DNA of 64,000 nt. It comes from Rhodospirillaceae bacterium. Its GTDB lineage: Bacteria > Pseudomonadota > Alphaproteobacteria > UBA6615. The position numbers were made by a program, and so were the translations under genes. Shown piece by piece: positions 1,576 to 55,784 of this stretch (position 1 is its first letter; every line of letters starts with the position of its first letter). A model generated the notes under the pieces. It saw only the letters and a list, made by a program, of their open reading frames with translations, was not told where the DNA came from and did not search any database. The stretch covers positions 47,150 to 111,149 of the forward strand of contig JABJEK010000058.1 of NCBI GenBank assembly GCA_018702955.1. The letters are read 5' to 3'.

Positions 1576-2208
1576 ATGACGGCGCTCAACCTCAGCATCG
1601 ACGGCATCGCCGAAGGTCAACGGATACCCGAAGAGTTTGCGTTCGGCGTTCGCACCGACAGCGAGCCCTTTACATTCGGTGCGAATATCAGCCCGGCCAT
1701 CAGCTGGAGCGGCGGCCCAGACGACACCAAATCCTATGCCATCATCATGCTCGACCGCAGCGTCCCGACCGTGTTCGATGACGCCAACCAGGAAGGCCGG
1801 GTCATCCCTGCCGATCTGGCGCGGATGGACTTCATGCATTGGGTTTTGGTCGATATAGCGGCGACGACAACCAGCCTGCCGAAGGGTGCAGAGTCCGACG
1901 CGGTCGTGCCCAAAGGAAAGGCGACCGGGCCTGCGACGCATGGCGTGCGCGGTGCCAACGATTTCGGCATGTTCATGGCCTCGAACCCGGATATGGCGGG
2001 TGATTATGGCGGTTATGACGGACCCGCGCCGCCGTGGAACGACGAGATCATGCACGAGTATGTATTCACCGTTTATGCGCTCGACGTCGAGACGCTCGGC
2101 ATGAGCGGTGTGTTCAGCGGTGCCGACGCGCTGGCTGCGATGGAAGGTCATGTGCTAGCGAGCGGCCAAGTGGTGGGTGAATACACCCTAAACCCCGATC
2201 TCACGTAA
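1576..2208 (+). CDS. YbhB/YbcL (PEBP, Raf kinase inhibitor-like) protein
   Basis: NISPAISWS, FMHWVLVDI, GYDGPAPP and HEYVFTVYALD motifs; GGAG RBS before ATG 1576. Confidence 0.85.
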   Translation: MTALNLSIDGIAEGQRIPEEFAFGVRTDSEPFTFGANISPAISWSGGPDDTKSYAIIMLDRSVPTVFDDANQEGRVIPADLARMDFMHWVLVDIAATTTSLPKGAESDAVVPKGKATGPATHGVRGANDFGMFMASNPDMAGDYGGYDGPAPPWNDEIMHEYVFTVYALDVETLGMSGVFSGADALAAMEGHVLASGQVVGEYTLNPDLT

Positions 2209-2288: not shown

Positions 2289-2346
2289 TCAGATCACGGT
2301 GGGCATATGTATCTGTTGGGCAACAACGCATCCAACGGAGAGTACG

Positions 2347-3531
2347 ATGTCCGATCACGCGAAAAACGACGACCGAAAGACGTTCGACCACAACTTCGTT
2401 TACGGCACCGTTGAAGGTGACGAGATCGACGGCACCTTCGAGCACGAGATCATCTTCGGCTACAACGGTGACGACGAGGTTCGCGCCGGCGGCGGTGACG
2501 ACTATGTCTGGGGCGGCAGCGGTAATGATCGCCTTTATGGCGAAGACGGAAACGACCACATCTTCGGGGGTCGGGACGATGACAGACTCTTCGGTGGCGA
2601 CGGCGATGACTGGCTCGACGGCGGCCCCGGGGATGACTGGCTGTACGGAGATCAGGCCGGTGACGTCGGCAACGACACACTCCTCGGCGGCCTTGGTGAC
2701 GACGAGTTGCACGGCGGTGACGGAAACGATCACCTCGAGGGCGGTCAGGGCAACGACGAACTTCATGGTGAGAACGGAGACGACTGGCTCCATGGCGGCC
2801 AGGGCGATGATCGGCTGCACGGCGGCAACGGCAACGACACGCTGTGGGGTCTCGACGGAGATGACCGACTGCTAGGCAGCGATGGTGATGATGAATTGCA
2901 TGGCGGCGACGGCGATGACCAACTCAACGGCGGAAACGATAATGACTGGCTCTTCGGAAACGCTGGCGACGATTCACTCTATGGCGAGAACGGCGACGAC
3001 CAGCTGTTCGGGTGGACCGGGACCGACCTACTCGAAGGCGGAAACGGGAACGACGAACTCCATGGCGGCGAAGACGGCGACACCCTGCGCGGCGAAGCTG
3101 GCAATGACGGGTTATGGGGAGACGTCGGCGATGATGATCTTGCGGGTGGCGCGGGCATCGATGTTCTGGAAGGCGGTGAAGGCAACGACACGCTCGATGG
3201 AGGCGAGGACCAGGATTTCCTTTTTGGAGAAGAAGGCACGGATACGCTCAACGGCGGCAACGGCGACAACGCGGAGGATCATCTCTGGGGCGGTGAAGGC
3301 GACGACCTGTTCCTGTTCTCCGTCAACGGCGGCGACGACTGGGTCGAGGATTTCACGTCCGGCGAAGACTCGCTTGATGTCTCGGCTTTGGGCTTCGTGG
3401 ATTTCGCTGATTTGCTGTCAGGCACGAGTGATGTCAGCGGCAACGCCACCATCGACTATGGCAACAACGACGCGATTACGCTGGTCGGCGTCGCAACAGC
3501 CGACCTGACGGCGGATGACTTCCTCTTCTGA
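2347..3531 (+). CDS. Calcium-binding RTX (hemolysin-type nonapeptide repeat) protein
   Basis: About 30 tandem L/FxGGxGxDx repeats followed by a T1SS-substrate-like C-terminus (DWVEDFTSGEDSLDVS ... DDFLF); GGAGAG RBS before ATG 2347. Confidence 0.9.
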   Translation: MSDHAKNDDRKTFDHNFVYGTVEGDEIDGTFEHEIIFGYNGDDEVRAGGGDDYVWGGSGNDRLYGEDGNDHIFGGRDDDRLFGGDGDDWLDGGPGDDWLYGDQAGDVGNDTLLGGLGDDELHGGDGNDHLEGGQGNDELHGENGDDWLHGGQGDDRLHGGNGNDTLWGLDGDDRLLGSDGDDELHGGDGDDQLNGGNDNDWLFGNAGDDSLYGENGDDQLFGWTGTDLLEGGNGNDELHGGEDGDTLRGEAGNDGLWGDVGDDDLAGGAGIDVLEGGEGNDTLDGGEDQDFLFGEEGTDTLNGGNGDNAEDHLWGGEGDDLFLFSVNGGDDWVEDFTSGEDSLDVSALGFVDFADLLSGTSDVSGNATIDYGNNDAITLVGVATADLTADDFLF

Positions 3532-3534: not shown

Positions 3535-4866
3535 CTAGCCCGCAGCGTCAAAATGGTGCACGAGCTTGGTCTTGTAATCCGTGCGCGGCAGGCTCCCGAA
3601 CGGCACGACCTCGACCCTGGTCGTGACCACGAGTTTCGCGCGGATGGCCTTTTCGATGGCTTCACCGAGGCCGGCGCCAGGGCTGCTGCCCTCCGCCGCC
3701 TCGACGTGAACCGGCAGCGGCGGCAATTGCTGTACGCCCTGCCGGCTCGGGCGCACCAGCATGATCCCGCTGACATCCGGGCGAAACTGGTTCACCACCT
3801 CCCGGATCGCACTGGGGAAGATGTTGACCCCGCGCACGATGAGCATGTCGTCGGTCCGCCCGATGCAACGAATGCGCGGCCCCGTGCGGCCGCTCGCGAC
3901 CGGCCCCATGCTGACCGTGACATGGTCGCGCGAGCGAAAACGCAGCAGGGGCGCGGCTTCCTGCTGCAAATGGGTATAGACCGGCTCGCCCTGGACCCCG
4001 TCCTCGAACGGCAAGGTTTCCCCGGTCTCGGGATCAATCAGCTCCATGTGGATGTAGTCCCGGGCGAGGAAGTTCATGCCCGCCTGTTCCGGCCCCTCCC
4101 CGAACATGGAAATCGACATTTCACCGAGCCCCATCACCTCATGCACCTTGGCGTTGAACGCCGCCTCGATCTGCGCCCGAACTTCCGGTTCACCCCCGCC
4201 TGGCTCACCGCCGGCCACGAGCGTCTCCAGTCCGCACGCCGCCGGATCAATGCCGCGTGCACGCGCGGCTTCGGCGATATACAGGAAATAAGATGGCGTC
4301 CCGGGCATCGCCTGCACCTGAAAACGCTCCAGCGCCGTCAGGAGACGATCGGTGTTGCCGCTGCCCACCGGCACCATGCGCACGCCCAGCGCGATCATGG
4401 ATTCGTGCACCGCACCCGCCACGAAGGGGCCGGAATTATAGGTGGTGACGACCCGGTGATGGGGACGGATACCGGCGGCGAAATAGCTGCGGTTCGATGT
4501 CTGGACCCAGCGCTTGAGGTCACCCTGGGTAACGGGAATATAAAGCGGCGTACCCGACGTCCCGCTGGTTGAATAAATCCGCACCACATCGTCGAGCGGA
4601 GCCGCAAGCTGCTTACCCAGCGGCAGGTGCCCGGCCTGGCTGGCACGCAGTTCATCTTTGACCGTGAACGGCAGGTGCCGCAGATCATCCAGCCCGCCGA
4701 CGGATTCGGGCGTCTTGAAACCGGCCGCCTTGAACTTCTCGCGATAAAACTCGGACCGCGCGAACAGATACTCGATCTGTTTGCGGTAAACCGGCTCGTC
4801 CTTCTGTTTCTGGTCCGCGAGGTCCCGGGTCTCGGCCTCGGGATCAAAGAGATCGGCGGCCGACAT
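3535..4866 (-). CDS. Phenylacetate-CoA ligase (PaaK) family acyl-CoA ligase
   Basis: YSTSGTSGTP AMP-binding loop; GGEPGG, LLRFRSRD and GRTDDMLIVRGVNIFPS motifs. Confidence 0.85.
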   Translation of the reverse strand: MSAADLFDPEAETRDLADQKQKDEPVYRKQIEYLFARSEFYREKFKAAGFKTPESVGGLDDLRHLPFTVKDELRASQAGHLPLGKQLAAPLDDVVRIYSTSGTSGTPLYIPVTQGDLKRWVQTSNRSYFAAGIRPHHRVVTTYNSGPFVAGAVHESMIALGVRMVPVGSGNTDRLLTALERFQVQAMPGTPSYFLYIAEAARARGIDPAACGLETLVAGGEPGGGEPEVRAQIEAAFNAKVHEVMGLGEMSISMFGEGPEQAGMNFLARDYIHMELIDPETGETLPFEDGVQGEPVYTHLQQEAAPLLRFRSRDHVTVSMGPVASGRTGPRIRCIGRTDDMLIVRGVNIFPSAIREVVNQFRPDVSGIMLVRPSRQGVQQLPPLPVHVEAAEGSSPGAGLGEAIEKAIRAKLVVTTRVEVVPFGSLPRTDYKTKLVHHFDAAG

Positions 4867-4871
4867 ATATT

Positions 4872-5657
4872 CTAGTCCCCGTCATAGGTGATGGCTTCTT
4901 CCCCGTGGTGGGCCAGCAGGAAACCGATCGGACGTTCCATTTCCTCGTTTAAATGACCGATCAGGCCCACCGTGCGGGCGAGAATGGGAATCCCCCGGAT
5001 CGCCGCCTTGGGAAAATCCAGGTCGAGAAGCACTGCCGCCATCGGCCCTTGCAAATTCATCGGCAGCGGCTTGCCCCAGACCTCGGCAACAGCATCCGGG
5101 AAGGCCCGCAGCGCGCCAACATGGCGTGCAGACACGCCGCGCTCGTCCGCCAGATCGAGGATGCGTACCGCGCGGGGATCAACCGGGTGGTGGATGGGAT
5201 GGCCGAACCCGGGAATAAACTTGCCGGCGTCCTTGTATTCACGTGCGATGGCGAGCGCCGCCGCCTCGGGAGACTCTCCGCCCTCGATCCGCGTCGCCGC
5301 ATCATCGAGCATTTCGCCGCAAACATCCGCACTGCCCAGAATGACGGAGCCGACCCCGAGGAGGCCGGCCGCAACTGCGCCCTGCATGGCCTCCGGTGCT
5401 GCCGCCAGGGTCATGCGGGCCGCCTGCACACTCGGCGTCAGGCCATGTTCGGCCAGCGCCACCACCAGGACGTCCATGAAGAACGCCTGATCGGCGCTGG
5501 GCTCACGCCCTGTGAGATGAAGAAAGAAAAACTCGGCGATAGAGCTGTGCCCCATAACCTCATTGCATAGATCCTTCCCGCGTACCGTGATCGAGGTGGC
5601 ATCCGCCGTTTCGATGGCAGTTTTCGCCTCGCCCTTCTTACCAATCAGCATCGTCAT
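4872..5657 (-). CDS. Citryl-CoA lyase-like / citrate synthase-fold protein
   Basis: AEHGLTPS, IPGFGHPIH and ARTVGLIGH motifs; start placed at the ATG downstream of a GGGGAG RBS. Confidence 0.8.
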   Translation of the reverse strand: MTMLIGKKGEAKTAIETADATSITVRGKDLCNEVMGHSSIAEFFFLHLTGREPSADQAFFMDVLVVALAEHGLTPSVQAARMTLAAAPEAMQGAVAAGLLGVGSVILGSADVCGEMLDDAATRIEGGESPEAAALAIAREYKDAGKFIPGFGHPIHHPVDPRAVRILDLADERGVSARHVGALRAFPDAVAEVWGKPLPMNLQGPMAAVLLDLDFPKAAIRGIPILARTVGLIGHLNEEMERPIGFLLAHHGEEAITYDGD

Positions 5658-5841
5658 CTCCCCTAAGTGCTGCGCGACGATAGGGTCAAACACGCGCCTA
5701 AACAATATTTCACATATGAGAAGAATAATTCGTAGTGTGGAACGAGATTGACTCTTGCCAACACCCTTCGTCTAGAATGCATCAGGGCCCGATAAATCGC
5801 GGACGACAAGCCGCGAAGGCAGAGGCCAGGGAGATAACGCT

Positions 5842-6957
5842 ATGAAATACGGAATGTTCGCAATGCCGCTCCGTCCGCCCGGGGGGGACGTCACCAAGGA
5901 ATACCATCAGGATATCGAAACCTTCGTCATGGGCGACAAGCTCGGCTACACCGAAGGCTGGATGGGCGAGCATTACACCATTCCGTGGGAGCCGATCCCG
6001 GCCACAGACCTCTTCGCCGCATCCGTATTCGCGCGCACCGAGAACATCCGCATCGGCACCGGCATCGTGCTGTTGCCCATGCACGATCCACGTCAGGTGG
6101 CATTGCGTATCGCTTATCTCGACCATCTGTCGAAAGGCCGCCTGAATTTCGGGATCGGTGCCGGTGGCGCCCCGACCGACTTCCAGTTCTGGGATATCGA
6201 CTACAAGGAAGGCGAGCATCGCGCACGCATGCGTGAATCGATCGACGTGATCAAGCGCTTGTGGACCGAAGACGAGCCGTTCGAACACAATGGCAAATTC
6301 TGGCAGTTCAAGGTGCCGGAACCGATGCCGCAAGTGCCGTTGGGCCATCACATTCGGCCCTATCAGGACCCGCATCCGCCGATCGCTGTATCGGGATTGC
6401 ACAAGGCGTCGGAATCGCTGTTCACGGCGGGGGCCAACGGCTGGATACCGATGAGCATCAACTACCTGCCGGCGGTCAACCTCAACACCCACTGGGATGC
6501 CGTGTGCGAGGGTGCGAAATCCACCGGCCGTCCCGCGCCGCGTCGCAGCGAGTGGCGGATTGCACGTGAGGTGTTTGTCGGCAAGACGGACCAGGAAGCG
6601 CGCGACCATGTGCTGAACGGCCCGATCGGACGTGCGTATACCGACTACATGTACAACGTGCTGAAGTCGCTGGGCGCGACCGATCTCTACAAGGGAGATC
6701 CGGACATGCCCGACGAAGCGCTGACGGCGGAGTATGTTTGCGACAATATCTGGGTTGTCGGCAGCCCCGACACGGTCGCGGAAAAGCTGAGCAAGCTCTA
6801 TGACGACGTGGGCGGTTTCGGCACCGTGCTGCAGATCCAATACACCTACGAACCGCACCAGATTTGGTACGACAACATGGACCTGTTCGCCAACAAGGTG
6901 ATGCCGAGCCTCGCGCACCTCGTGCCCGAAGACGAACCGGCCGCCGCAGCGCAGTAA
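5842..6957 (+). CDS. LLM-class (luciferase-like) flavin-dependent monooxygenase
   Basis: WMGEHY, IRIGTGIVLLP, LDHLSKGRLNFGIGAG, PYQDPHPPI and VVGSPDTV motifs. Confidence 0.9.
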   Translation: MKYGMFAMPLRPPGGDVTKEYHQDIETFVMGDKLGYTEGWMGEHYTIPWEPIPATDLFAASVFARTENIRIGTGIVLLPMHDPRQVALRIAYLDHLSKGRLNFGIGAGGAPTDFQFWDIDYKEGEHRARMRESIDVIKRLWTEDEPFEHNGKFWQFKVPEPMPQVPLGHHIRPYQDPHPPIAVSGLHKASESLFTAGANGWIPMSINYLPAVNLNTHWDAVCEGAKSTGRPAPRRSEWRIAREVFVGKTDQEARDHVLNGPIGRAYTDYMYNVLKSLGATDLYKGDPDMPDEALTAEYVCDNIWVVGSPDTVAEKLSKLYDDVGGFGTVLQIQYTYEPHQIWYDNMDLFANKVMPSLAHLVPEDEPAAAAQ

Positions 6958-6981
6958 CAGGGCACCAAAATGTTCGGCCCA

Positions 6982-7007
6982 CCCCGCATCACGCGCGTGA
7001 TGCGGGG
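6982..7007. other. Perfect 26-bp palindrome (intercistronic hairpin)
   Basis: CCCCGCATCACGC/GCGTGATGCGGGG, no adjacent U-tract. Confidence 0.75.
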
Positions 7008-7037
7008 CTCGCCAACATAAGCATCACGGAGACCTAA

Positions 7038-8069
7038 ATGTCCGTTGCCTCTGAATCGAAATTCCAAGTATCCCCCGATATCGCGGCATGCATTGCTGAA
7101 GAGCGCATTCCGATCATCGATGTCGGCGACTTTCTGTCGGGCGACGCCGATGCGCTGGAGCAGTTCGCGACCGACTTGCGGGCGATCCAGGAAAGCCTCG
7201 GCTTCTACTGCATCGTCAATCATGGCATCGATCAGGGGCTGATCGATCGCAGTTTCGACCAGATTGCGGAACTGTTTGCGCTGCCCGATGAGACCAAGTT
7301 GAAATACCGGGTAGACTTCCACCATCAAGGCTTCATCCCCAACAAATCGCTGATCCTGCGCTGGTCGAAGATTGCGAAGAATGAGAAGAAGGACCTGAAC
7401 GAGGCTTGGGCGTTCATGCGTGAGCGAACCGCCGATGATCCCAAGGTCAAAGACAATATCCGTCACCGAAACCTCAACCAGTGGCCGGAAGAGCTGCCGG
7501 AATTTCGCAAAACGCTTGTCGAGTATCAGGAAACCATGGCCGTATTGGCGACGCGGATGCTACCCGCTTATGCCCGGGCGCTCGAAATGCCGGCGGACTA
7601 TTTCGACGAGAAGTTTTCGCACCCCGAATATTACAACCGTTGTGCCTGGTATCCGCCCGTCGATGCCGAGGAGGGACAATTCTCACTGTCGCCCCATTCC
7701 GACCACAGCTCCATGACCTATCTGCCACTCATGGATGTGGCGGGACTTGAGGTCATGGCACCGTCGGGGAAATGGATGCAGATCGAGCCCCTGCGCGGTG
7801 CGATCGTCGTGAACACCGGTGAGTTCTTCAACCGCTGGACCAACGGACGTTTCATCGCCACGCCGCACCGCGTCGTACCGCCGCTGAAGGACCGCTACGC
7901 GCTGACATTCTTCTACAACTGCAACGACGAAACCGTGGCCGACCCGATCCCGACCTGCATCAATCCCGGAGATAAGCCGGTCTATGTACCCATGTCGTTC
8001 CACGACTTCTTCATCACCTATATGGATGGCAACTACATCTACCGCACGGCGGAGATGGACGGGGACTAG
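7038..8069 (+). CDS. 2-oxoglutarate/Fe(II) oxygenase, isopenicillin N synthase-like family
   Basis: IPIIDV N-terminal DIOX region; HSD...H facial triad (PHSDHS, TPHRV); NTGE..RWTNG motif. Confidence 0.9.
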   Translation: MSVASESKFQVSPDIAACIAEERIPIIDVGDFLSGDADALEQFATDLRAIQESLGFYCIVNHGIDQGLIDRSFDQIAELFALPDETKLKYRVDFHHQGFIPNKSLILRWSKIAKNEKKDLNEAWAFMRERTADDPKVKDNIRHRNLNQWPEELPEFRKTLVEYQETMAVLATRMLPAYARALEMPADYFDEKFSHPEYYNRCAWYPPVDAEEGQFSLSPHSDHSSMTYLPLMDVAGLEVMAPSGKWMQIEPLRGAIVVNTGEFFNRWTNGRFIATPHRVVPPLKDRYALTFFYNCNDETVADPIPTCINPGDKPVYVPMSFHDFFITYMDGNYIYRTAEMDGD

Positions 8070-8117
8070 TGGTCCTGGCCACCCACCCCCAGTATGTCCC
8101 GTGACGAAAGCAGTCGT

Positions 8118-8894
8118 ATGAGCGCTGAGCATATCCTGACCGAAACGCGTGATCGCGTGCTGTATGTGACCATCAACCGGGTGGAGAAACACAACGCGCT
8201 CGCGATTTCGATTATCGACGAAATCGGCGAGACCTTCCGCGCGGCGGCAAAGGACGAGACACTTGTGGCGGGCGTGCTGCGTGGAGCGGGCGAAAAGACC
8301 TTCGCCGCCGGCGGCGACTTGCGTGAACTGGCCGGGCTGCGCACCCAGACGGAAGCCGAAAAAATGGCAATCGATGCCAAGGCAGCATTTAACGCCATCC
8401 GGGATTTCCCCGTCCCGGTTATCGCAGGGCTCAACGGCAACGCCTTCGGCGGCGGGGCCGAGCTCGCCGTATCGTGTGACTTCCGCGTCGCGGCGGCCCA
8501 CGCCAAAATCGGCTTCGTCCAAGGTCGGCTAGCCCTGGCCACGGCATGGGGCGGCGGCCCGGACCTGCTCGACCTGGTCGGCCGCGCGCGGGGCCTGCGG
8601 CTGATGAGCACCGGCGAAATGCTCGACCCGGCAACAGCACTGGAAATTGGCCTGTATGACGCGGTGGGTCAGGCCGCCGAGCCCTTCGACGAAACAATCG
8701 AGGGCTTCCTCGCACCGATCCGCAAGCAGAAGCCGCAATCCATGCGTGCGTTCAAGGCCGTCAGCGATTCACACCGGCGCGGAGATGCTCGCACCGCGAT
8801 GCAAGAGATAGAGACCTGCATGTTCGTGAAGACCTGGGTCCATGACGATCACTGGGAGGCGGCCGAAAAGGTGCTTCCCACGAAGAAGGGCTGA
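8118..8894 (+). CDS. Crotonase-family protein, ECHDC1 (alkylmalonyl-CoA decarboxylase)-like
   Basis: FAAGGDL, GGGAELAVSCDFR and FVQGRLALATAWGGG motifs; the second catalytic Glu position is Gln. Confidence 0.8.
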   Translation: MSAEHILTETRDRVLYVTINRVEKHNALAISIIDEIGETFRAAAKDETLVAGVLRGAGEKTFAAGGDLRELAGLRTQTEAEKMAIDAKAAFNAIRDFPVPVIAGLNGNAFGGGAELAVSCDFRVAAAHAKIGFVQGRLALATAWGGGPDLLDLVGRARGLRLMSTGEMLDPATALEIGLYDAVGQAAEPFDETIEGFLAPIRKQKPQSMRAFKAVSDSHRRGDARTAMQEIETCMFVKTWVHDDHWEAAEKVLPTKKG

Positions 8895-8898
8895 CCCG

Positions 8899-10542
8899 AT
8901 GACCGACAATTCCGCCCCCCGGAAAGACGACGCCGAGGCCGCGCGTCGCGAGCCACCAACCAAACCCTCCACCGCAACTCCCTCGGGCATCGAGGTGCCG
9001 CCGGTGGTGACGCCGGATATGGTGGCAGACCGCGAACCGGAGATGCCGGGCGAATATCCGTTCACCCGCGGCATCTTCCCCGATGGTTTTCGCGGCCGAT
9101 TGTGGACCATTCGCCAGTATTCGGGTTTCGGCACGGCCGAGGAATCGAATGAGCGCTACAGGTTTCTGCTCGATCAGGGACAAACCGGCCTGTCGGTCGC
9201 GCTCGACTTGCCCACCCAGTGCGGCTACGACCCGGTCGATCCGATTGCGAAATCCGAAGTCGGCAAGGTCGGTGTCTCCCTGTCGAGCCTGGCCGAGGCC
9301 GAAATATTGTTCGACGGCATCGATCTGGGCGGAATCTCCACCTCCTTCACGATCAACGGCACCGCGTCGATCATCTACGCCATGTATTGCGCCGTCGCCG
9401 ACAAAAAGGGCGTACCGCGCGAGAAGCTGACCGGCACGATCCAGAACGACATCCTCAAGGAGTATGTCGCGCGCGGCACCTGGATTTTCCCGGTGCGCCC
9501 ATCGATGCGCCTGATCGCCGATACGATCCTGTTCTCCTATGACCAGACACCCCGATTCAACGCGATCAGCATCGCCGGCGCCCATGTGCGCGACGCGGGC
9601 TGCACGGCGGTCGAGGAGATGGGCTACACGCTAGCCAACGGGCTCGCCTATATCGACGAACTGATCCGCCGGGGCGGCGATGTGGAGAAATTCGCACGCC
9701 GGCTCAGTTTCTTCTTCTATGTGCACATGGATTTCTTCGAGGAAGTCTGCAAATTCCGCGCGGGTCGGCGGCTCTGGGCAAAACTCCTCACCGAACGCTA
9801 CGGCGTGAAGGATCCCAAGGCCCTTATGTTTCGTTTCGGCGTTGTCTGCGGCGGCTCGTCCCTGGTCGGCGCCCAGCCTTACAACAACGTCGTCCGCGTC
9901 GGCATCGAGAACATGGCGGCCGTGATGGGCGGCGCCCAATCCATCTTCACCGCCGCATTCGACGAGGCCTACCAGATTCCGACCGAGCATTCTGCGGAGA
10001 TCGCCGTCCGCACCCAGCAAATCGTCGCCCATGAATCCGGCATCGCACGAACCGTCGACCCATTGGGTGGCAGCCACTATGTCGAGTGGCTGACCGACCG
10101 GATGGAGGACGAAGTCATGAAGGTAATCGACGAGATCGAGGCATATGGTGGCGTGACCAAGGCGGTGGAAGACGGCTGGCTGCAGATGAAAATCGCCCAG
10201 CGCGCATCCGAGCGAAAACATAAGATCGACAGCGGTGAAACAGTCGTTGTCGGCCAGAACCACTTCCGTCGCGACGACCAGAATGACGGTGTCGCCGAAT
10301 TATTCAAACTCGACCCGCAAGCATCAGCCCGCGTCATCGGCAAGTTCGAAAAAGTCCGTGACAGCCGTGACAACGACGCGGTCACGGCATCCCTGTCTGC
10401 CCTGGAGGCAGCTGCCGCCAAGGACGATGAGAACCTCATGCCCTATCTGATCGATTGCTGTCATGCCTATGCAACTGTCGGTGAGATGGTGGCGACACTG
10501 AAGTCGCAATGGGGCGAATTCGAAGAACCAGTGAGGCTTTAG
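8899..10542 (+). CDS. B12-dependent acyl-CoA mutase, large (substrate-binding) subunit
   Basis: PGEYPFTRG, WTIRQYSGFG, GTIQNDILKEY, QPYNNVVRV and DPLGGSHYVE motifs; no B12 domain fused. Confidence 0.95.
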   Translation: MTDNSAPRKDDAEAARREPPTKPSTATPSGIEVPPVVTPDMVADREPEMPGEYPFTRGIFPDGFRGRLWTIRQYSGFGTAEESNERYRFLLDQGQTGLSVALDLPTQCGYDPVDPIAKSEVGKVGVSLSSLAEAEILFDGIDLGGISTSFTINGTASIIYAMYCAVADKKGVPREKLTGTIQNDILKEYVARGTWIFPVRPSMRLIADTILFSYDQTPRFNAISIAGAHVRDAGCTAVEEMGYTLANGLAYIDELIRRGGDVEKFARRLSFFFYVHMDFFEEVCKFRAGRRLWAKLLTERYGVKDPKALMFRFGVVCGGSSLVGAQPYNNVVRVGIENMAAVMGGAQSIFTAAFDEAYQIPTEHSAEIAVRTQQIVAHESGIARTVDPLGGSHYVEWLTDRMEDEVMKVIDEIEAYGGVTKAVEDGWLQMKIAQRASERKHKIDSGETVVVGQNHFRRDDQNDGVAELFKLDPQASARVIGKFEKVRDSRDNDAVTASLSALEAAAAKDDENLMPYLIDCCHAYATVGEMVATLKSQWGEFEEPVRL

Positions 10543-10551
10543 GATCGCACC

Positions 10552-10950
10552 ATGAGCCTGAACGGAAAACGTATCCTGATCGCGAAACCGGGCCTCGACG
10601 GGCACGATGTCGGCGCAAAAATCATCGCCCTGGCGCTGCGCGACGCAGGCGCCGACGTGATCTATACCGGCCTCCGGCGCACGCCCGACTATATCGCGCG
10701 GGTCGCGGTCGACGAGGATGTCGACGCGGTCGGACTGTCGATCCTGTCGGGCAGCCACAAGGAGCTGGTCGAGGAGACGGTGCGTTGTCTCAACGAGTTG
10801 GATGCTGGTGATATCCGCCTGTTCGTCGGCGGCACCATTCCGGCGGAGGACCATGACGAACTGCGCGATGCGGGCGCCCGCGGCATTTTCACGGCAGAAA
10901 TGACGATCAATGATGTGGTGGCCGCGCTCGACGCGGAACTGAGCGCGTGA
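10552..10950 (+). CDS. Acyl-CoA mutase small subunit (cobalamin-binding domain)
   Basis: KPGLDGHDVGAKII (DxHxxG), VGLSILSGSH and FVGGTIP motifs. Confidence 0.95.
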   Translation: MSLNGKRILIAKPGLDGHDVGAKIIALALRDAGADVIYTGLRRTPDYIARVAVDEDVDAVGLSILSGSHKELVEETVRCLNELDAGDIRLFVGGTIPAEDHDELRDAGARGIFTAEMTINDVVAALDAELSA

Positions 10951-12089
10951 GTGGAGGCCCCCTTTCCGGCGTTCGGATCATTGAGGTCGCGCATGTTCTC
11001 GCCGGCCCGTTCTGCAGCATGATTCTGGGCGACCTGGGCGCCGACGTGATCAAGGTCGAGCCCCCGGGCGGCGACATGGCCCGCAACATCACCAAGCAGT
11101 TCACGGGGCCCTACAACGACTATTTCGCGAGCCTCAACCGCAACAAGCGCTCCATCGTCCTCGACCTGAATACGCCGGCCGGTCAGGCCCAACTCGGCGC
11201 GCTCGCGGCCGATGCCCAAGGCCTGGTTACCAACCTGCGACCCGCCACCATTCGGCGTTTCGGCCTGACCTATGACGACCTGAAGCCCCACAATCCAAAT
11301 CTGGTTTGCCTGGCGTTGACGGGGTTTGGGCTCGACGGACCCTATGCCGACAAGCCTGCTTACGACTACATCGTCCAGGCGCTCGCCGGTGTCATGACCC
11401 TGACCGGTGACCCGGGCACCGCGCCGACCAAGGCCGGTTACTCCGCCGTCGACAATTCAACCGGCATGATGGGTGCCATCGGCCTGCTGGCGAAGATCAT
11501 CGAGGGCAAGGGTGGCCAGGTCGATGTCTCCCTGTTCGACACCATGCTGGCCCAGCTCAACTATCTGGCCTCGGGCTACCTCAACCACGGCATCGTCCCG
11601 CAACGAACATCGCAAAGTGCGCACCCGTACATGGTCCCGGCCCAGGTCTTCGAGACCAGCGACGGATACCTGATGTTGTTCATCTCGACCGACAAGTTCT
11701 GGAAGAAATTCTGCGAGGTCGTCGGCTGGACCGAACAGGCACGTGACCCGAACCTCGCAACCATGAATGCGCGGACGGAAAACCGCGACGCCGTGATCGG
11801 CGCCGTCGGCGAACTCATGAAGTCACAAACCACCGCATACTGGGTCGAGACACTCGGCAACGAGGGCCTCGTGGTCTCGGGCGTCGAAACCCTCGACCAG
11901 GCACTCGATGGGGACATGGCCGCATCGCGTGAGATGATAGCGGTAATTCCCACACCCGACGGTGCGCTCCGCGTGGTCGGTAATCCGATCAAGATGACCG
12001 ATCATCCGCCCCGGTATGGCCTGCCGCCGCTGCTGGGCGAACATACTGACGAAATCCTGGGCACCTCGCCCGCCGCCGCAGCCAAATGA
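10947..12089 (+). CDS. Family III CoA-transferase (CaiB/BaiF)
   Basis: LAGPFCSMILGDLGADVIKVEPPGGD, NRNKRSI and YSAVDNSTG (catalytic Asp position) motifs. Confidence 0.93.
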   Translation: MSGGPLSGVRIIEVAHVLAGPFCSMILGDLGADVIKVEPPGGDMARNITKQFTGPYNDYFASLNRNKRSIVLDLNTPAGQAQLGALAADAQGLVTNLRPATIRRFGLTYDDLKPHNPNLVCLALTGFGLDGPYADKPAYDYIVQALAGVMTLTGDPGTAPTKAGYSAVDNSTGMMGAIGLLAKIIEGKGGQVDVSLFDTMLAQLNYLASGYLNHGIVPQRTSQSAHPYMVPAQVFETSDGYLMLFISTDKFWKKFCEVVGWTEQARDPNLATMNARTENRDAVIGAVGELMKSQTTAYWVETLGNEGLVVSGVETLDQALDGDMAASREMIAVIPTPDGALRVVGNPIKMTDHPPRYGLPPLLGEHTDEILGTSPAAAAK

Positions 12090-12985
12090 GCGGCACGTCA
12101 CGCAATCCGCGGCGAAACCTCAGCCGCGCGCTGTCGCGCATCGCCAACGCCGATGTCTACGAGACCCTGGCACAGCAGAGCGGACCATCCGCAGAAAACC
12201 TGCCGCGGATCGGCATCACGGGCGCACCGGGCGCGGGCAAAAGCTCCCTCATCGCCAGGCTCGCCAAGCTCCGCAAACGCAACGACCGAAAGATCGCGGT
12301 GCTGGCGGTCGACCCGTCGAGCCCGGTCTCCCAGGGTTCCATCCTCGGCGACCGGATTCGCATGGACGCCATCGCCGACGACCCGGACATCTTCATCCGC
12401 TCGATCCCCTCGCGCCGCGCCCATGACGGCCTGGCGGACAACACCGCCGATCTGCTCAACGCCATGGAAGGGCACGGGTTCGGCGAAATCATTCTTGAGA
12501 CAGTGGGCGTCGGACAGGCCGAGTACACCATCCGCACATTGGTCGACACGGTGGTGCTCATCCTGGTGCCCCATTCCGGCGATGCCATCCAGGCGATGAA
12601 GGCCGGCATTCTCGAAATGGCCGATATCTATGTTGTAAACAAGGCCGACCTGCCCGGCGCCGACCTGATGGCCACCGAAATCGAGCAAGTGGCCGACCAT
12701 CAAAGCGCCGACGGCTGGACCCCACCCGTCATCATGACGTCCCGCAACGATCCCGAGGGCTTTGCCGCGCTCGATGACGCCATCAATGCCCATATGGCCT
12801 GGCAGGTGAACCACGGCGATCCGGCCGCAGCGCGGCGCGCCCGCGCGCGCTACCAGGCCCAGGCGCTCATTTCCCGGCGCATCGACGAAGTGCTCGAGGC
12901 GGCCGGCGAAGATATCCTCGACCAGAATCCCGGCGAGCTGTTCGACGCGATCGTCGCCCGGCTCGGCCGCACAAACGAGGCATGA
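12086..12985 (+). CDS. meaB: MeaB/ArgK mutase-associated GTPase
   Basis: GITGAPGAGKSS, AVDPSSP, LGDRIRM, ETVGVGQ and VNKAD motifs; adjacent to the mutase genes. Confidence 0.92.
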   Translation: MSGTSRNPRRNLSRALSRIANADVYETLAQQSGPSAENLPRIGITGAPGAGKSSLIARLAKLRKRNDRKIAVLAVDPSSPVSQGSILGDRIRMDAIADDPDIFIRSIPSRRAHDGLADNTADLLNAMEGHGFGEIILETVGVGQAEYTIRTLVDTVVLILVPHSGDAIQAMKAGILEMADIYVVNKADLPGADLMATEIEQVADHQSADGWTPPVIMTSRNDPEGFAALDDAINAHMAWQVNHGDPAAARRARARYQAQALISRRIDEVLEAAGEDILDQNPGELFDAIVARLGRTNEA

Positions 12986-13905
12986 CACAAATGTTCGCAC
13001 CACCCCCTGTCATCGAAACCCGGGTCTTCGCCGATGTGAATGCGACCCACGGCATCAATGACCGGGAGTCCGAATGGGCGAAGCTCCTGTTCGGCCGCCC
13101 CAACACGCCGAGTTTCCTCGAGGGACCCTCGTTTGATCGCGCCGGCAATCTCTGGCTCGTCGATGTCGCCTGGGGCCGTCTGTTCCGTATATCGCCGGCC
13201 GGCGATATCGAGCTTGCCTGTACCTATGACGGCGAGCCCAATGGCTTGGCCTTCCACAAGGACGGACACGGCATCATCGCCGACCATTATCACGGGCTGA
13301 TGCGCCTCGATCCCGAGGCCGGCACGGTGGAACCTCACATGGTGCGCAACACCAATGAGCGGTTTCGCGGCACCAACGACCTGACCTTCGCCTCGAACGG
13401 CGACCTCTACTTCACCGACCAGGGCACGTCCGACCTGATTGATCGGTCGGGCCGGGTGTTTTGCCTGCATGCGGATGGCACCCTCGAACTCGTCTGCGCG
13501 GACCTGCCGAGCCCGAACGGGCTGGTCCTGAGTGGCGACGAGAAAATTCTGTATGTGGGCCTGACCCGCGACAACGCGGTCTGGCGCATGCGCCTGGCCG
13601 AACGCGGCCGCGCGGATCAGGTGGGGCGTTTCGCGCGCATGTCGGGCGGCACCGGCCCGGACGGCATGGCCGCGGACGCCGACGACAACCTTCTCGTCTG
13701 CCATGTCGGGTTCGGCGCGATCTGGGTGTTCGCAGCCAACGGAGAGCCGATCTACCGGATCAACTCCTGCGCCGGGCCGTTGATGACCAACTGTGCATTC
13801 GGGGGGCCCGACGGCAAGACCCTCTACATCACGGAATCGGCTACCGGTCAGGTGCTCACGGCCGAGATGCCGACGGCGGGCCGCATTCTATTTTCACACA
13901 TGTAG
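12982..13905 (+). CDS. SMP-30/gluconolactonase family beta-propeller
   Basis: FLEGPSFD, PNGLAF, TNDLTF.LYFTD, PNGLVLS and PDGMAAD motifs. Confidence 0.9.
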   Translation: MTQMFAPPPVIETRVFADVNATHGINDRESEWAKLLFGRPNTPSFLEGPSFDRAGNLWLVDVAWGRLFRISPAGDIELACTYDGEPNGLAFHKDGHGIIADHYHGLMRLDPEAGTVEPHMVRNTNERFRGTNDLTFASNGDLYFTDQGTSDLIDRSGRVFCLHADGTLELVCADLPSPNGLVLSGDEKILYVGLTRDNAVWRMRLAERGRADQVGRFARMSGGTGPDGMAADADDNLLVCHVGFGAIWVFAANGEPIYRINSCAGPLMTNCAFGGPDGKTLYITESATGQVLTAEMPTAGRILFSHM

Positions 13906-13907: not shown

Positions 13908-13979
13908 GGGCGGGTTACAAACCCGCCCCTACTGACCACACGCGCGGACCGGATGTAGGGGCAGGTTTCAAACCTGCCC
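13908..13979. repeat. Inverted doublet of GTAG-type REP-like elements
   Basis: GGGCGGGTTACAAACCCGCCCCTAC (13908-13932, reverse) and GTAGGGGCAGGTTTCAAACCTGCCC (13955-13979). Confidence 0.8.
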
Positions 13980-13983: not shown

Positions 13984-14868
13984 CTACTCCGCCGCCTTCG
14001 TGATTTCACCCTCGAGGATCTCGTAGACCACCGCACACTCATCCTCGAGGCGTCCGGCCTTTTCGATCTTCTTGTAATAGTCGTTGCAGATCCGCAGCAG
14101 CGGCGCCGACAGGCCCAGCGCGTCGGCCTGCTCCTCGACGATATCGAGGTCCTTCCACAACAGCTTGCTCGGGCCCGCGCAGGGCTGCCAGGCCCGGTCC
14201 TTGATGATGCCCGCGCGCATGCCGAAAACGGTCGACCCGGCGGCACTCGGACCCACGATATCGATCATCAACTCGGGGTCGAGGCCCATCTCCGCACCGA
14301 ACAACATGCCTTCTGCCAGGGCCACCGTGTTCGCCCCGACCATAAAGTTGATCATCAGCTTGAGCTTGATGCCGGTGCCGTATTCGCCGACATAGAACGT
14401 CTTCGGGCAGACCTTCTCAAGCATCGGCTTCACGGATTCACAAAGCGTCTCGTCGCCGCTCATCATGATGACGCCCTTGCCCGCCCGAATGATCGGCTGG
14501 GTGCCGCTCAGGGGGCAATCGATGATCTGTGCGGGTGTATCGCCGACCTGGTCGCGGACACGCTCCTTCTCGCCCACCGGGAAGGTGTTCATCTCGATGA
14601 TCGTCAGGCCTTCATGGGCACCGGCCAGCAGGCCGTCAGGACCCTCCAGCGCCGTGCGGGACGCCTGGGTGCTCGGCAGCGCCGAAATCACCACATCGGC
14701 CCATTCAGCAAGCTCACGCGCCGTCTCGAATAATTTGCCGCCGGTGTCCGGGAAGCTCTCGGTGCTCGGGCGACGAACCGCAGCGCATTCGTAACCCTCC
14801 GGCATCAGGATCTCGGCCGTAATACCGCCAATCAGCCCAAGACCCAGAATTCCTACCTTTTCAACCAT
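13984..14868 (-). CDS. NAD(P)-dependent beta-hydroxyacid dehydrogenase (3-hydroxyisobutyrate dehydrogenase family)
   Basis: GILGLGLIGG Rossmann motif, DCPLSG, and KLKLMIN with the catalytic Lys. Confidence 0.85.
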   Translation of the reverse strand: MVEKVGILGLGLIGGITAEILMPEGYECAAVRRPSTESFPDTGGKLFETARELAEWADVVISALPSTQASRTALEGPDGLLAGAHEGLTIIEMNTFPVGEKERVRDQVGDTPAQIIDCPLSGTQPIIRAGKGVIMMSGDETLCESVKPMLEKVCPKTFYVGEYGTGIKLKLMINFMVGANTVALAEGMLFGAEMGLDPELMIDIVGPSAAGSTVFGMRAGIIKDRAWQPCAGPSKLLWKDLDIVEEQADALGLSAPLLRICNDYYKKIEKAGRLEDECAVVYEILEGEITKAAE

Positions 14869-14907
14869 GATGTCCTCCCTCTAGAAGCAATCTCATATGT
14901 CCCGACC

Positions 14908-15498
14908 TCAGGGGCCGGCGCCCAATACCGCCTCGCGGAACCGGGAGCGCAAGTAGGCCCCGTCCCGCGCCGGTAGGACGCGCGGATGCTCACCCGCCTC
15001 GATCTTGATGTTGGCAAACAACGTCCCCTCGCAGCGCTGCATGCGTGTCGCGAGCGTGCCCAGCGCGTTCATGTCCCGGATATCCTCGAGCGCCTCGATC
15101 CCGCAACCCCGTGCCACATCCACCAGGCTGACCCCGCGCGCCGTCGCCGTCGGCTGGGCTCCGGTTTCGCCATAGACCTCGTTGTCGAGCACGATCACCG
15201 ACAGGTTGGCGGGTTGAGCGGCGGCGATCGTCGCCAGGCTGCCGAGACCCATCAGCATGTCCCCATCACCGGTGATGGCGGCGACCGGCCGGTCCGGTTG
15301 TGCCTGCGCCAGCCCGAGCGCCAGGGCGGCGGTGCCTCCCATGGCACCCCAGAGATAGAAATTACGCGGATCGTCGCCCGCGGCCGCGCAGTCATAGGTC
15401 GCCGAGCCGAGCCCGGAGACCACAAGCAGCTCGCCGCGATCCTGCAGCAGTCGCGCGACGGCCTCGCGGCGGTCCAGGCGCGGTTGGGGTCCGGTCAT
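14908..15498 (-). CDS. ThDP-dependent decarboxylase beta subunit (sulfopyruvate/phosphonopyruvate decarboxylase-like)
   Basis: GAMG and GDGDMLMGLGSL...LDNEVYGETG ThDP-binding motif. Confidence 0.85.
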   Translation of the reverse strand: MTGPQPRLDRREAVARLLQDRGELLVVSGLGSATYDCAAAGDDPRNFYLWGAMGGTAALALGLAQAQPDRPVAAITGDGDMLMGLGSLATIAAAQPANLSVIVLDNEVYGETGAQPTATARGVSLVDVARGCGIEALEDIRDMNALGTLATRMQRCEGTLFANIKIEAGEHPRVLPARDGAYLRSRFREAVLGAGP

Positions 15499-15499
15499 G

Positions 15500-16051
15500 T
15501 CAGCCCTCCTCCGTGAAGGCCTTGCGGCCGATCAGACGCTGGGAAAGCAGCACCGCCGAGGCGAGCATCCCGTCAAAGGATTGCCGGATCGCGGCATCGA
15601 GTGTCGGCGCGGCGTCATCGGGGTCGTCGACCCGATGCGCCTGCACGCCCATCCGCGTGAGTATGTCGGGTGTCGCCTGCCCCATCTGGGCCTGCCACGG
15701 GTTGAACTCGCCCCATTCGCCGCGCATCGTGATGAGCGTCACCAGCGGCAGCCGACAATTCTCGATCAGGGTGAACATGTTCACGCAATTGCCCACGCCG
15801 CTCGATTGCATCAGCAGGATCCCGCGATCACCGCCTAGCCAGGCACCAGCCAGCAACGCCACACCGTCCTCTTCCGTGGTCAGGACCGTCGCGGTCATGT
15901 CCGGGTTGTCTTCGCACCGCTCGATCAGCCGCGCATGCCCCGCATCCGGCACATAGGCGACCTGGCGAATATTCTGCTGCACCAGCACGTCGTAGAGCGC
16001 GTCGGCCCAATCCGGCGTCGCGGCATCGGGCCTTATAACCGTGTCGCTCAT
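15500..16051 (-). CDS. ThDP-dependent decarboxylase alpha subunit (ComD-like)
   Basis: AYVPDA, TTEEDGVAL, MQSSGVGN and RGEWGEFNPWQ motifs; paired with the beta subunit. Confidence 0.85.
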   Translation of the reverse strand: MSDTVIRPDAATPDWADALYDVLVQQNIRQVAYVPDAGHARLIERCEDNPDMTATVLTTEEDGVALLAGAWLGGDRGILLMQSSGVGNCVNMFTLIENCRLPLVTLITMRGEWGEFNPWQAQMGQATPDILTRMGVQAHRVDDPDDAAPTLDAAIRQSFDGMLASAVLLSQRLIGRKAFTEEG

Positions 16052-35238: not shown

Positions 35239-35240
35239 CC

Positions 35241-55781: not shown

Positions 55782-55784
55782 CGG

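Follow-up and report, generated by a model that had tools for sequence, protein, structure and literature searches.

The iaa operon of Aromatoleum, which serves the anaerobic degradation of indoleacetate, encodes a family III phenylsuccinyl-CoA transferase (IaaL) and a split (2-aminophenyl)succinyl-CoA/benzylmalonyl-CoA mutase (IaaGH), and the IaaGH step is followed by that of a decarboxylating acyl-CoA dehydrogenase, IaaF (PMC8360864). Split mutases resembling the 2-hydroxyisobutyryl-CoA mutase (HCM) subclass, MatB-MatQ and ActD, are encoded in the matlystatin and actinonin clusters, where an interconversion of hexylmalonyl-CoA and 2-pentylsuccinyl-CoA has been proposed (PMC5719088). In E. 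coli, the scpA(sbm)-argK-scpB-scpC operon (succinate to propionate) specifies a B12 mutase, a MeaB/ArgK chaperone, a crotonase-fold enzyme and a CoA-transferase. Here we describe a gene cluster comparable to these systems, found in a 64,000-nt stretch of DNA from a Rhodospirillaceae bacterium (GenBank assembly GCA_018702955.1, contig JABJEK010000058.1, positions 47,150 to 111,149; hereafter, the window). The ten genes at 3535-13905 of the window include those for a luciferase-like monooxygenase (LLM), an Fe(II)/2-oxoglutarate (2OG) oxygenase and a split adenosylcobalamin (AdoCbl) acyl-CoA mutase, and together with adjoining genes they form an island that is a composite of two modules, here called A and B. 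We give roughly even chances to the interpretation that this IclR-controlled, catabolic island houses an undescribed, B12-dependent route for the breakdown of a bulky substituted succinyl-CoA.

A first-pass annotation of this DNA had proposed an undescribed pathway of oxygenation, CoA activation, B12-dependent rearrangement and decarboxylation, encoded by a co-oriented run of genes divergent from those for a citryl-CoA lyase-like (CCL-like) protein and a CoA ligase. Length and codon-position GC served to select candidate genes in the window (62% G+C), which were then compared with Pfam and NCBIfam; all ten genes proved to be intact open reading frames (ORFs) of the families that had been named (Table 1). 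As the annotation had also stated, no epimerase (VOC-type) and no propionyl-CoA carboxylase was found among the candidate genes by Pfam scan. The proposal was partly supported, in that the cluster is real, is not a propionate operon and most likely encodes a mutase acting on a substituted succinyl-CoA, in surroundings that require O2. The mutase clade is uncharacterized, but the pathway logic is less novel than had been implied, as CoA transfer, B12 rearrangement and decarboxylation are already combined in the scp and iaa operons.

The evidence centers on the mutase. Its TIM-barrel subunit, B12-binding DxHxxG motif (DGHDVG) and MeaB partner place it in the AdoCbl acyl-CoA mutase superfamily. 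The best solved relatives of the large subunit were HcmA (4r3u, 2.4e-142), which was the top match, and human methylmalonyl-CoA mutase (MCM; 1.8e-137), and the score against the MCM equivalog NF006944 was 570.6 bits, short of the cut-off of 876. Alignment to 1req, 2xij and 6oxc showed that Tyr89, Arg207 and His244 (P. shermanii numbering) are kept within IRQYSGF, VARGTW and GAH, respectively, and the three residues are conserved across the clade to which the protein belongs. In MCM these three residues serve carboxylate binding and catalysis, whereas HCM and isobutyryl-CoA mutase (ICM) have Ile or Phe at position 89 and Gln at position 207. Retention of Tyr89 and Arg207 therefore excludes HCM- or ICM-type specificity, and either identity was rejected despite the rank of HcmA; the position of HCM Asp117 is occupied by Ala (LSVALD vs. 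STDFD). Since Tyr89, Arg207 and His244 are all retained, the substrate probably carries a carboxylate.

Three other segments are altered. Tyr243 is replaced by Ala (AGAH), the HxQT motif (His328/Gln330) by GVVC, and the LHTN motif (Asn366) by IFTA; Asn366 sits just before the ribose-contacting Glu370. In an alignment of 85 loci, the resulting signature (RQYSGF, DLPTQCGYD, ARGTW, AGAH, FGVVCGG and SIFTAA) was restricted to a discrete clade, and every aligned member of that clade (the window, L001-L016, L018 and L081-L085, plus Marinobacter, Sulfitobacter and Paraburkholderia) carries the changes. About 60 MCM-, ICM- and HCM-like relatives (~50% identity) keep GYH and HxQT, with LHTN kept in all save two, and the three motifs are also kept in E. 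coli ScpA and in the solved MCM and HCM. The pocket of the clade thus looks enlarged and hydrophobic, and its remodelling suggests a bulky substituted succinyl- or malonyl-CoA as substrate.

Comparison with the iaa system, whose gene cluster was recovered via an IaaE homologue (P0121), points the same way. Both systems have a family III CoA-transferase and a split AdoCbl mutase, with a substituted succinyl-CoA and then decarboxylation of a substituted malonyl-CoA, known for iaa and predicted for the island. Tyr89, Arg207 and RGTW are common to IaaH and the window mutase, and in both proteins HxQT and LHTN have given way to small or hydrophobic residues (IAAG and MALC, respectively, in IaaH); IaaH keeps Tyr243, whereas the window clade has Ala. 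IaaH is the only mutase for which biochemical work supports a bulky substituted succinyl-CoA, and its parallel remodelling is the strongest evidence for a substituted substrate here. Orthology to IaaH was nevertheless rejected because the large subunits are only 43% identical, less than the ~50% to generic split MCMs, and because the iaa partner genes (IaaF, the hydantoinase-like IaaCE and the Mo-hydroxylase) are missing. The CoA-transferases are 28% identical, and IaaB belongs to a different ligase class (AMP-binding_C). Furthermore, decarboxylation in the iaa route is oxidative, via IaaF, whose place is occupied by a crotonase in the window island, and the hydantoinase-like and molybdenum enzymes of that anaerobic system contrast with the O2-dependent oxygenases of the island.

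The four functions of the E. coli scp operon correspond one to one with module B. However, ScpA is a fused, canonical MCM (GYH, HCQT, LHTN), whereas the window mutase is split and altered, and ScpC is a family I transferase, whereas that of the window belongs to family III; the substrate predicted for the window mutase is bulkier than the succinyl-CoA of ScpA. The MatB and ActD mutases, which we compared by description only, differ in being biosynthetic, in their company of crotonyl-CoA carboxylase/reductase (CCR), epimerase and nonribosomal peptide synthetase genes, and in having few close orthologues. Ecm/MeaA is a fused single polypeptide associated with CCR; the window mutase is split and no ccr gene lies nearby.

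The clade is widespread. An earlier, generic peptide-pattern search had returned at least 17 members, and a clade-specific DNA pattern for AGAH[VF]RDAG gave at least 120 matches in species-representative genomes, adding at least 99 loci with a clade mutase. Carriers among the matches listed included many Mycobacterium, Mycolicibacterium, Nocardia, Streptomyces, Amycolatopsis and Frankia, as well as Alpha-, Beta- and Gammaproteobacteria, Archangium, NC10 and Nitrospinota; cultured carriers include Sulfitobacter dubius, Marinobacter sp. M3C, Paraburkholderia caribensis, Billgrantia pellis and Mycolicibacterium species. Public annotation describes the clade only as 'methylmalonyl-CoA mutase (family protein)'. 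No paper on this clade or on the gene combination was found in the literature searched, and nothing relevant was found there on dimethylmalonyl-, glutaryl- or alkylsuccinyl-CoA mutases or on MSMEG_4877-4882. To our knowledge, acyl-CoA mutase specificities are few (methylmalonyl-, ethylmalonyl-, isobutyryl-, pivalyl-, 2-hydroxyisobutyryl-, and benzyl- or hexyl-malonyl-CoA), and this clade, which is found in well over 100 species and combines a distinct pocket with a crotonase partner of its own, would add a new substrate class.

Other mutases were encountered in these searches. In the two relatives lacking LHTN, from a Deltaproteobacteria metagenome-assembled genome (MAG; L075) and a Fusicatenibacter MAG (L077), the segment reads SLAACS and SMACCA, respectively; Tyr243 is kept in both, and HxQT is kept in L075 and reads VHVHT in L077, indicating that further pocket variants exist. 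A plasmid of Sinorhizobium sp. C101 (pC101c; L284:4117-11015) carries another uncharacterized mutase cluster, made up of genes for an aminotransferase, a B12-binding subunit, MeaB, a mutase, a crotonase, an AMP-ligase and an MFS protein; its mutase has RQVAGF and AQKEW and, at the position of Tyr89, resembles neither MCM nor the classic ICM/HCM type. The Halopenitus plasmid mutase H13 was rejected as iaa-like, and the plasmid matches H19 and H31 were rejected as Ecm, being other mutases.

On the favored interpretation, a 2-substituted succinate, taken up or formed within the cell and bearing a bulky and probably hydrophobic group, would gain CoA by transfer. By shifting the thioester group (a 1,2 shift), the mutase would then convert the resulting substituted succinyl-CoA to the corresponding substituted malonyl-CoA, and the crotonase-fold enzyme would remove the free carboxyl to yield an ordinary acyl-CoA for beta-oxidation or CoA recycling. 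Module A would oxidize and open an alicyclic or branched compound, feed the resulting acid to module B, and also handle small oxo-acid or aldehyde fragments. Gene content, operon structure, conservation and modularity are observed, as are the active-site signatures; the class of substrate, the direction of flux, the decarboxylase role of the crotonase and the connection of module A to module B are inferred. In the ocean, module B stands behind oxygenases of a type that has been invoked for the oxidation of recalcitrant alicyclic dissolved organic matter, and B12 availability would on this interpretation be tied to the turnover of such carbon.

The CoA-transferase resembles enzymes of the dicarboxylate type, its best NCBIfam matches being succinate-glutarate and then succinyl-CoA:mesaconate transferases (both below cut-off) and its PDB relatives a formyl-CoA-transferase-like protein (10uh), SUGCT (9br7) and YfdE. 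The crotonase gene lies directly upstream of the mutase gene in nearly all proteobacterial loci. Canonical enoyl-CoA hydratases have two catalytic glutamates (Glu144 and Glu164 in the rat enzyme). Among 53 aligned crotonases (the window, 51 relatives and E. coli ScpB as a yardstick), the first is kept (GGGAE), while at the position of the second 51 have Gln and 2 have His (ScpB itself having neither). Loss of the second glutamate implies that the protein is not a canonical hydratase, and by analogy with scpB and from the logic of the gene set it may be a decarboxylase of substituted malonyl-CoA. The label 'ECHDC1-like' given at first pass was not borne out, for in a comparison made with ScpB the similarity was of the generic crotonase kind (24% identity, E 3e-14), with Gly at the position of ScpB His66 and Tyr140 unaligned. 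The proposed rearrangement of a substituted succinyl-CoA to a malonyl-CoA fits the kept carboxylate-binding residues and the IaaH-like pocket.

Several observations weigh against this interpretation. The ScpB catalytic residues are not matched in the crotonase, no decarboxylase model was among the NCBIfam matches shown for it, and it could equally be an epimerase or an isomerase. We take the changed motifs to lie in the substrate cavity, a placement that leans on MCM structures and the parallel with IaaH. Catalytic residues are missing from the CCL-like protein, which weakens any account of the fate of the ligase product, and a cobalamin riboswitch was not found in the window. Finally, the two modules are separable (see below), so that module B is not essential to module A.

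The arrangement of the cluster is conserved. With the LLM protein as query, 38 loci were retrieved, and the full block is present in about 25 species-level marine Alphaproteobacteria with mutase identities of 79-94%. A protein of a marine Rhodospirillaceae MAG matched the window at 100% identity, and relatives were frequent in Tara, ENA and JGI marine assemblies. The shared order is PEBP, ligase(-), CCL-like(-), LLM, 2OG oxygenase, crotonase, mutase large subunit, mutase small subunit, CoA-transferase, MeaB, SGL (optional), dehydrogenase(-), the two TPP (thiamine pyrophosphate) enzyme subunits(-) and IclR(-). The conserved unit thus exceeds 3535-13905, adding the PEBP gene and a convergent minus-strand operon (13984-16839). 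The same block occurs in these species with flanks that vary by lineage, so the arrangement did not arise by chance, and co-conservation of the genes with a shared promoter and palindrome (described below) indicates a real, regulated unit. Conservation of the gene neighborhood, which had been suggested as a check on the first-pass annotation, was therefore found. Within the block, four-base start/stop overlaps join mutS to the CoA-transferase gene, the latter to the MeaB gene, and the MeaB gene to the SGL gene, suggesting translational coupling at each junction. Homologues of the mutase large subunit are 546-547 aa long, so the real start is probably at 8899 rather than 8842, and the length of CCL-like homologues (259-260 aa) suggests a start at 5651.

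Table 1. Features of the island and its borders in the window.
Feature	Position	Strand	Matches and notes
PEBP/YbhB-YbcL family protein	1516-2208	+	Pfam PBP; TIGR00481 90.6 (cut-off 57.75)
PaaK/HCL-like AMP-forming acid-CoA ligase	3535-4866	-	AMP-binding + AMP-binding_C_2
Citryl-CoA-lyase-like protein (CCL-like), citrate synthase fold	ORF 4872-5705, start likely 5651	-	NF004868 307 (306.9) bits, cut-off 193
Luciferase-like monooxygenase (LLM), resembling type II Baeyer-Villiger monooxygenases (BVMO)	5842-6957	+	Bac_luciferase 151.9 bits
Fe(II)/2OG oxygenase, DIOX_N/IPNS-like	7038-8069	+	DIOX_N + 2OG-FeII_Oxy
Crotonase-fold enzyme	8094-8894	+	ECH_1 124.9 bits
AdoCbl acyl-CoA mutase, large (substrate-binding) subunit	ORF 8842-10542, start probably 8899	+	MM_CoA_mutase PF01642 651.8 bits
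Mutase small, B12-binding subunit (mutS)	10552-10950	+	PF02310 75.7 bits; TIGR00640 139 bits; DGHDVG
Family III (CaiB/BaiF) CoA-transferase, dicarboxylate type	10947-12089	+	CoA_transf_3 367.5 bits
MeaB-type G-protein chaperone	12086-12985	+	PF03308 236 bits; TIGR00750 241.9 (cut-off 240.75)
SMP30/gluconolactonase-fold protein (SGL), the 'lactonase'	12982-13905	+	SGL 147.8 bits
Two GC-rich hairpins between convergent operons	13908-13979	n/a	RNA fold
Beta-hydroxyacid dehydrogenase (HIBADH/tartronate-semialdehyde-reductase family)	13984-14868	-	NAD_binding_2 + NAD_binding_11
Split two-domain TPP decarboxylase, sulfopyruvate/phosphonopyruvate-decarboxylase-like	beta 14908-15498, alpha 15500-16051	-	TPP_enzyme_C, TPP_enzyme_N
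IclR-family regulator	16048-16839	-	HTH_IclR + IclR_C
Flavin reductase, island membership uncertain	21497-22168	+	Flavin_Reduct 94.6 bits

Module B consists of the crotonase, the split mutase, usually a family III CoA-transferase, and MeaB. It also occurs alone in many Proteobacteria, usually with a homologous IclR gene and an organic-acid importer of the TRAP, TTT, MFS or LIV type. The partners are TAXI-TRAP and MFS in Billgrantia pellis; TctC, an FMN-dependent 2-hydroxyacid dehydrogenase, TauD and an RraA-like aldolase in a Ramlibacter MAG; TRAP in the metagenome contig L205 and an Azospirillum MAG; TAXI-TRAP on a Sulfitobacter dubius plasmid; and MFS and TRAP on a Paraburkholderia chromid. 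A Rhizobiales MAG has a LIV-type ABC importer, an SDR, an aldehyde dehydrogenase and a butyryl-CoA:acetate-type transferase, the last of which fits a plain acyl-CoA product. The gene set of module B fits the needs of uptake, CoA transfer, rearrangement and one further step. On a plasmid of Marinobacter sp. M3C, a PduO-type ATP:cob(I)alamin adenosyltransferase gene (L246:16296-16865) lies 3' of the MeaB-like gene, and insertion sequence (IS) elements of the IS5, IS630 and IS21 types are close by on both sides, suggesting that this cassette is mobile.

Many Actinobacteria possess a variant in which the genes for the mutase large subunit, mutase small subunit, an F420-type LLM and the CoA-transferase follow one another. 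In L009, the one actinobacterial locus annotated in full, an F420-dependent LLM of the MSMEG_4879 type (TIGR03564, 340 bits vs. a cut-off of 234) is encoded at 12021-12974 between the mutase small subunit and the CoA-transferase, and the locus adjoins genes for an MlaE/YrbE-type (Mce-system) permease, thiolase/DUF35, a P450 and a crotonase. Other actinobacterial loci show a gap of similar size between the small subunit and CoA-transferase genes, with acyl-CoA-ligase homologues near many of them. The pairing of the mutase with a different LLM subfamily in a second phylum points to a recurring functional link between LLM and mutase.

Module A comprises the LLM, the 2OG oxygenase, an optional SGL, the ligase/CCL-like pair, the split TPP decarboxylase, the dehydrogenase and PEBP, and occurs without module B in L218, L226, L230 and L244. 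In L230 and L244 the dehydrogenase, TPP, ligase and CCL-like genes lie on one strand and those for the LLM, 2OG oxygenase, PEBP and crotonase on the other, the L230 operon also containing a gene for an SNF-family transporter. L226 and L218, from two marine alphaproteobacterial genomes, have no genes for the mutase, CoA-transferase and MeaB; in their place, between the 2OG oxygenase and SGL genes, is a gene for a taurine-dioxygenase-like TauD protein (12232-13083 in each locus; 241 bits vs. a cut-off of 313), which may be a B12-independent replacement. Such a swap would give a natural comparison of B12-dependent and B12-independent forms. The crotonase is retained in the mutase-less L218, L230 and L244. 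Thus, a single linear pathway running through the ten genes was not established, as the two modules also exist apart. On a broader reading, the window mutase is one member of a large, unrecognized AdoCbl mutase family of marine and soil Proteobacteria, many Actinobacteria, NC10 and Nitrospinota, which would act with a dedicated crotonase-fold decarboxylase and a CoA-transferase to rearrange alkyl-, cycloalkyl- or gem-dialkyl-succinyl-CoA, the marine cassette being wired to a Baeyer-Villiger-type monooxygenase and a 2OG oxygenase. We put it forward tentatively, the chances being somewhat against it; if true, the aerobic degradation of branched or alicyclic dissolved organic matter would depend on B12, and some lineages would bypass the B12 step via a TauD-type dioxygenase.

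Among the enzymes of module A, the LLM has as its closest solved relative 3,6-diketocamphane 1,6-monooxygenase (3,6-DKCMO; 4uwm, 1.6e-47, full length), with the next match at 3.8e-21. A DKCMO-like fold and a separate flavin reductase match the type II BVMO pattern, and the flavin reductase at 21497-22168, which is also encoded near the island in L081, L226 and L245, is a possible supplier of FMNH2 to the LLM. A flavin reductase nearby is common to the island and the camphor pathway with its 2,5- and 3,6-diketocamphane monooxygenases; unlike the latter pathway, the island lacks a P450, a diketone-making dehydrogenase and an OTEMO-type enzyme. Homologues of the LLM (47-67% identity) are present in SAR202/Dehalococcoidia, and alicyclic ring opening via lactones has been hypothesized for the SAR202 FMNO homologues (PMC5395668). 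The first-pass annotation had suggested oxygenation or formation of a lactone, followed by lactone hydrolysis. The similarity of the LLM to a lactone-forming type II BVMO agrees with the formation of a lactone, but SGL is absent in about half of otherwise identical clusters (e.g., L081, L082, L204, L208, L213, L214 and L223), so lactone hydrolysis by SGL is not an obligatory step. The 2OG oxygenase, which is duplicated in L082 and L213, has an intact HxD...H facial triad (HSD...H) and 2OG-binding Arg, with RxS changed to RxA, and its best PDB match was 9ovh (6.7e-42).

The ligase scored 235 bits against a PaaK cut-off of 646 and so is not PaaK itself; its best solved relatives were PaaK (4r1l, 3.6e-59) and 2-hydroxyisobutyryl-CoA synthetase (6hdw, 3.3e-54). 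It forms a two-gene cassette with the CCL-like protein, and in Bosea and Pseudaminobacter this cassette lies beside LIV-type ABC importers and RraA/ICL-family lyases. The catalytic triad of citrate synthase is numbered His274, His320 and Asp375. The CCL-like protein, whose best PDB match was the H. thermophilus CCL (6hxp, 3.8e-25), shares the fold of that enzyme and of the CCL module of ATP-citrate lyase and keeps GFGH (His320 equivalent), DPR and ART..GH, including the Arg and His that bind the oxo-acid; it always pairs with the PaaK-like ligase and not with a succinyl-CoA-synthetase-like CCS. In 30 of 30 orthologues, however, the catalytic Asp and first His are lost (NVD to NLQ or NLT and HGGA to ILGSA), and the protein is probably not a lyase. 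The designation 'citryl-CoA lyase-like' consequently holds for the fold and the subfamily score and fails for the catalytic residues, and as functions for these proteins the names 'methylmalonyl-CoA mutase', 'enoyl-CoA hydratase' and 'citryl-CoA lyase' are probably wrong. The dehydrogenase (best NCBIfam match 2-hydroxy-3-oxopropionate reductase, 127 bits vs. a cut-off of 397) and the TPP decarboxylase (TIGR03846, 130.8 vs. 221.5; TIGR03845, 109 vs. 148) are conserved with the island. PEBP also travels with it, its gene lying between those for the 2OG oxygenase and crotonase in L230 and L244 (ORF 12185-12853 in L244).

The separability of the modules would also suit an explanation that we consider rather unlikely, namely that two unrelated cassettes adjoin, a mobile module B for some dicarboxylate having landed in an LLM operon so that A and B have different substrates. 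Module B is found alone in many phyla, with IS elements near it on the Marinobacter and Sulfitobacter plasmids, module A lacks it in four loci (L226, L218, L230 and L244), and the IclR of B-only loci is homologous to that of the window, so the regulator may have come with B. A mere juxtaposition does not sit well with more than 20 species in which B has the 2OG oxygenase gene on one side and the remainder of the island on the other, behind a single conserved promoter, nor with the different LLM between mutS and the CoA-transferase in Actinobacteria, and persistence of the crotonase in L218, L230 and L244 blurs the module boundary. A route like the ethylmalonyl-CoA pathway, leading to glyoxylate or a 2-oxoacid, appears less probable still. 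Here the mutase would make a methyl- or alkyl-succinyl-CoA, oxidation by the 2OG oxygenase or the LLM, together with the crotonase, would give a malyl-CoA-type ester to be cleaved by the CCL-like protein, and the TPP enzyme and dehydrogenase would process the glyoxylate or 2-oxoacid. Such a route could draw on the second NCBIfam match of the CoA-transferase (succinyl-CoA:mesaconate transferase), on the best matches of the dehydrogenase and IclR (tartronate semialdehyde reductase and the glyoxylate-responsive BhcR), on the oxo-acid-binding His and Arg retained by the CCL-like protein, and on the RraA-like and ICL-family lyases that accompany related cassettes. Yet those NCBIfam matches are all well below cut-offs, the CCL-like protein is without the enolizing Asp and first His and the crotonase without the second hydratase Glu, the TPP enzyme is of the two-domain ComDE/Ppd type rather than a glyoxylate carboligase, and no methylsuccinyl-CoA dehydrogenase is present.

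Degradation of an organosulfonate (or phosphonate) is very unlikely in our estimation. The mutase Arg and Tyr would then bind a sulfonate analogue of succinyl-CoA, the LLM and 2OG/TauD enzymes would desulfonate, and the TPP enzyme would be a sulfopyruvate decarboxylase, to whose alpha and beta subunits its own are indeed closest. LLM enzymes include alkanesulfonate monooxygenases, the TauD that takes the place of module B in L226 and L218 is taurine-dioxygenase-like, a TauE/SafE exporter is encoded at 25571-26329, and an SNF-family transporter lies within the L230 operon. The LLM, however, is far nearer to diketocamphane monooxygenase (1.6e-47) than to SsuD-type models (~30 bits), the TPP and TauD scores fall below family cut-offs, the island has no Xsc, SuyAB or sulfite dehydrogenase, and module B is accompanied elsewhere by dicarboxylate-type importers and in Actinobacteria by Mce lipid importers. 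That the mutase is an ordinary MCM of propionate or succinate metabolism, in a plain Sbm-type operon, is scarcely credible. Strong Pfam and TIGR00641 matches, the kept Tyr89, Arg207 and His244, the presence of MeaB and the public annotation all speak for it; the equivalog score (570 vs. 876), the loss across the clade of Tyr243, HxQT and LHTN, which MCM-, ICM- and HCM-like relatives keep, and the lack of both an epimerase and a carboxylase among the candidate genes scanned in the window speak against it. In addition, the Paraburkholderia and Diaphorobacter replicons carry a second mutase homologue, and the genomic partners of the clade are oxygenases and organic-acid importers. The opinion expressed at first pass that this is not a standard propionate operon thus agrees with the missing genes, the low MCM score and the altered pocket, and a substituted succinyl-CoA remains the substrate that we favor.

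Control of the island was examined in the divergent region between the CCL-like and LLM genes. A candidate IclR operator, the palindrome TTTC-N8-GAA(A), is located at 5708-5723; TTTC-N8-GAAA is typical of IclR half-sites. It is mostly kept over 23 aligned sequences (the window and 22 related loci), including mutase-less loci, and is degenerate in L210 and L212. Matches of the TTTC-N8-GAA type numbered four in the window (two sites, with both strands counted) vs. 0.24 expected by chance. The second, imperfect copy (TTTCGTATATCCGGA; 49324-49339) lies within the 3' end of a LysR gene and upstream of an oppositely oriented gene for a molybdopterin oxidoreductase. A putative sigma-70-like promoter of the LLM operon was seen by alignment at 5748-5778 (+), with TTGACTC, an 18-19 nt spacer and TAGAAT; it had been overlooked by an automatic promoter scan owing to its spacer length. 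TTGAC.C and TA.AAT recur in 85% or more of the same 23 sequences, and no internal promoter was evident downstream by promoter scan and alignment. The IclR protein encoded at 16048-16839 is the probable regulator of the island. Its best NCBIfam match, BhcR (110 bits), was below cut-off, and IclR genes 43-52% identical to it adjoin module B in L001, L004, L006, L205 and L206. Between the convergent operons, two similar, GC-rich hairpins (GGGCGGGTTACAAACCCGCCC and GGGCAGGTTTCAAACCTGCCC) gave a folding energy of -50.2 kcal/mol (z = -5.2; 0 of 200 shuffles as stable) and are likely bidirectional terminators or a REP-like repeat element.

The genes around the island vary. An RTX calcium-binding repeat protein with 11 HemolysinCabind stretches is encoded at 2299-3531, between the PEBP and ligase genes; PEBP is directly beside the ligase in L081, L082 and, on a tblastn map, most other clusters, so the RTX gene looks like a lineage-specific insertion. 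The segment 16920-22168 encodes an FAD aromatic-type monooxygenase, a FocA-like formate channel, the transhydrogenase SthA (641 bits, cut-off 465), a hemerythrin and the flavin reductase. As a whole this set is shared with the closest relatives only (in full with L081), the monooxygenase being found also in L208 and L223, and the hemerythrin and flavin reductase near the island in L226 and L245; it is probably outside the island, with the flavin reductase a possible exception. A tRNA gene at 27087-27160 (-) was the only Rfam match above the gathering threshold in the window. Ordinary housekeeping genes occupy 54489-58489 and 33922-39105, namely carAB, greA and those for a GlcDEF-like glycolate oxidase with two FAD-linked oxidase subunits and one of the CCG/Fe-S type. 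Since carAB and greA directly adjoin the IclR gene in L230 and L244, the 16.9-33.9 kb portion of the window looks inserted relative to those genomes.

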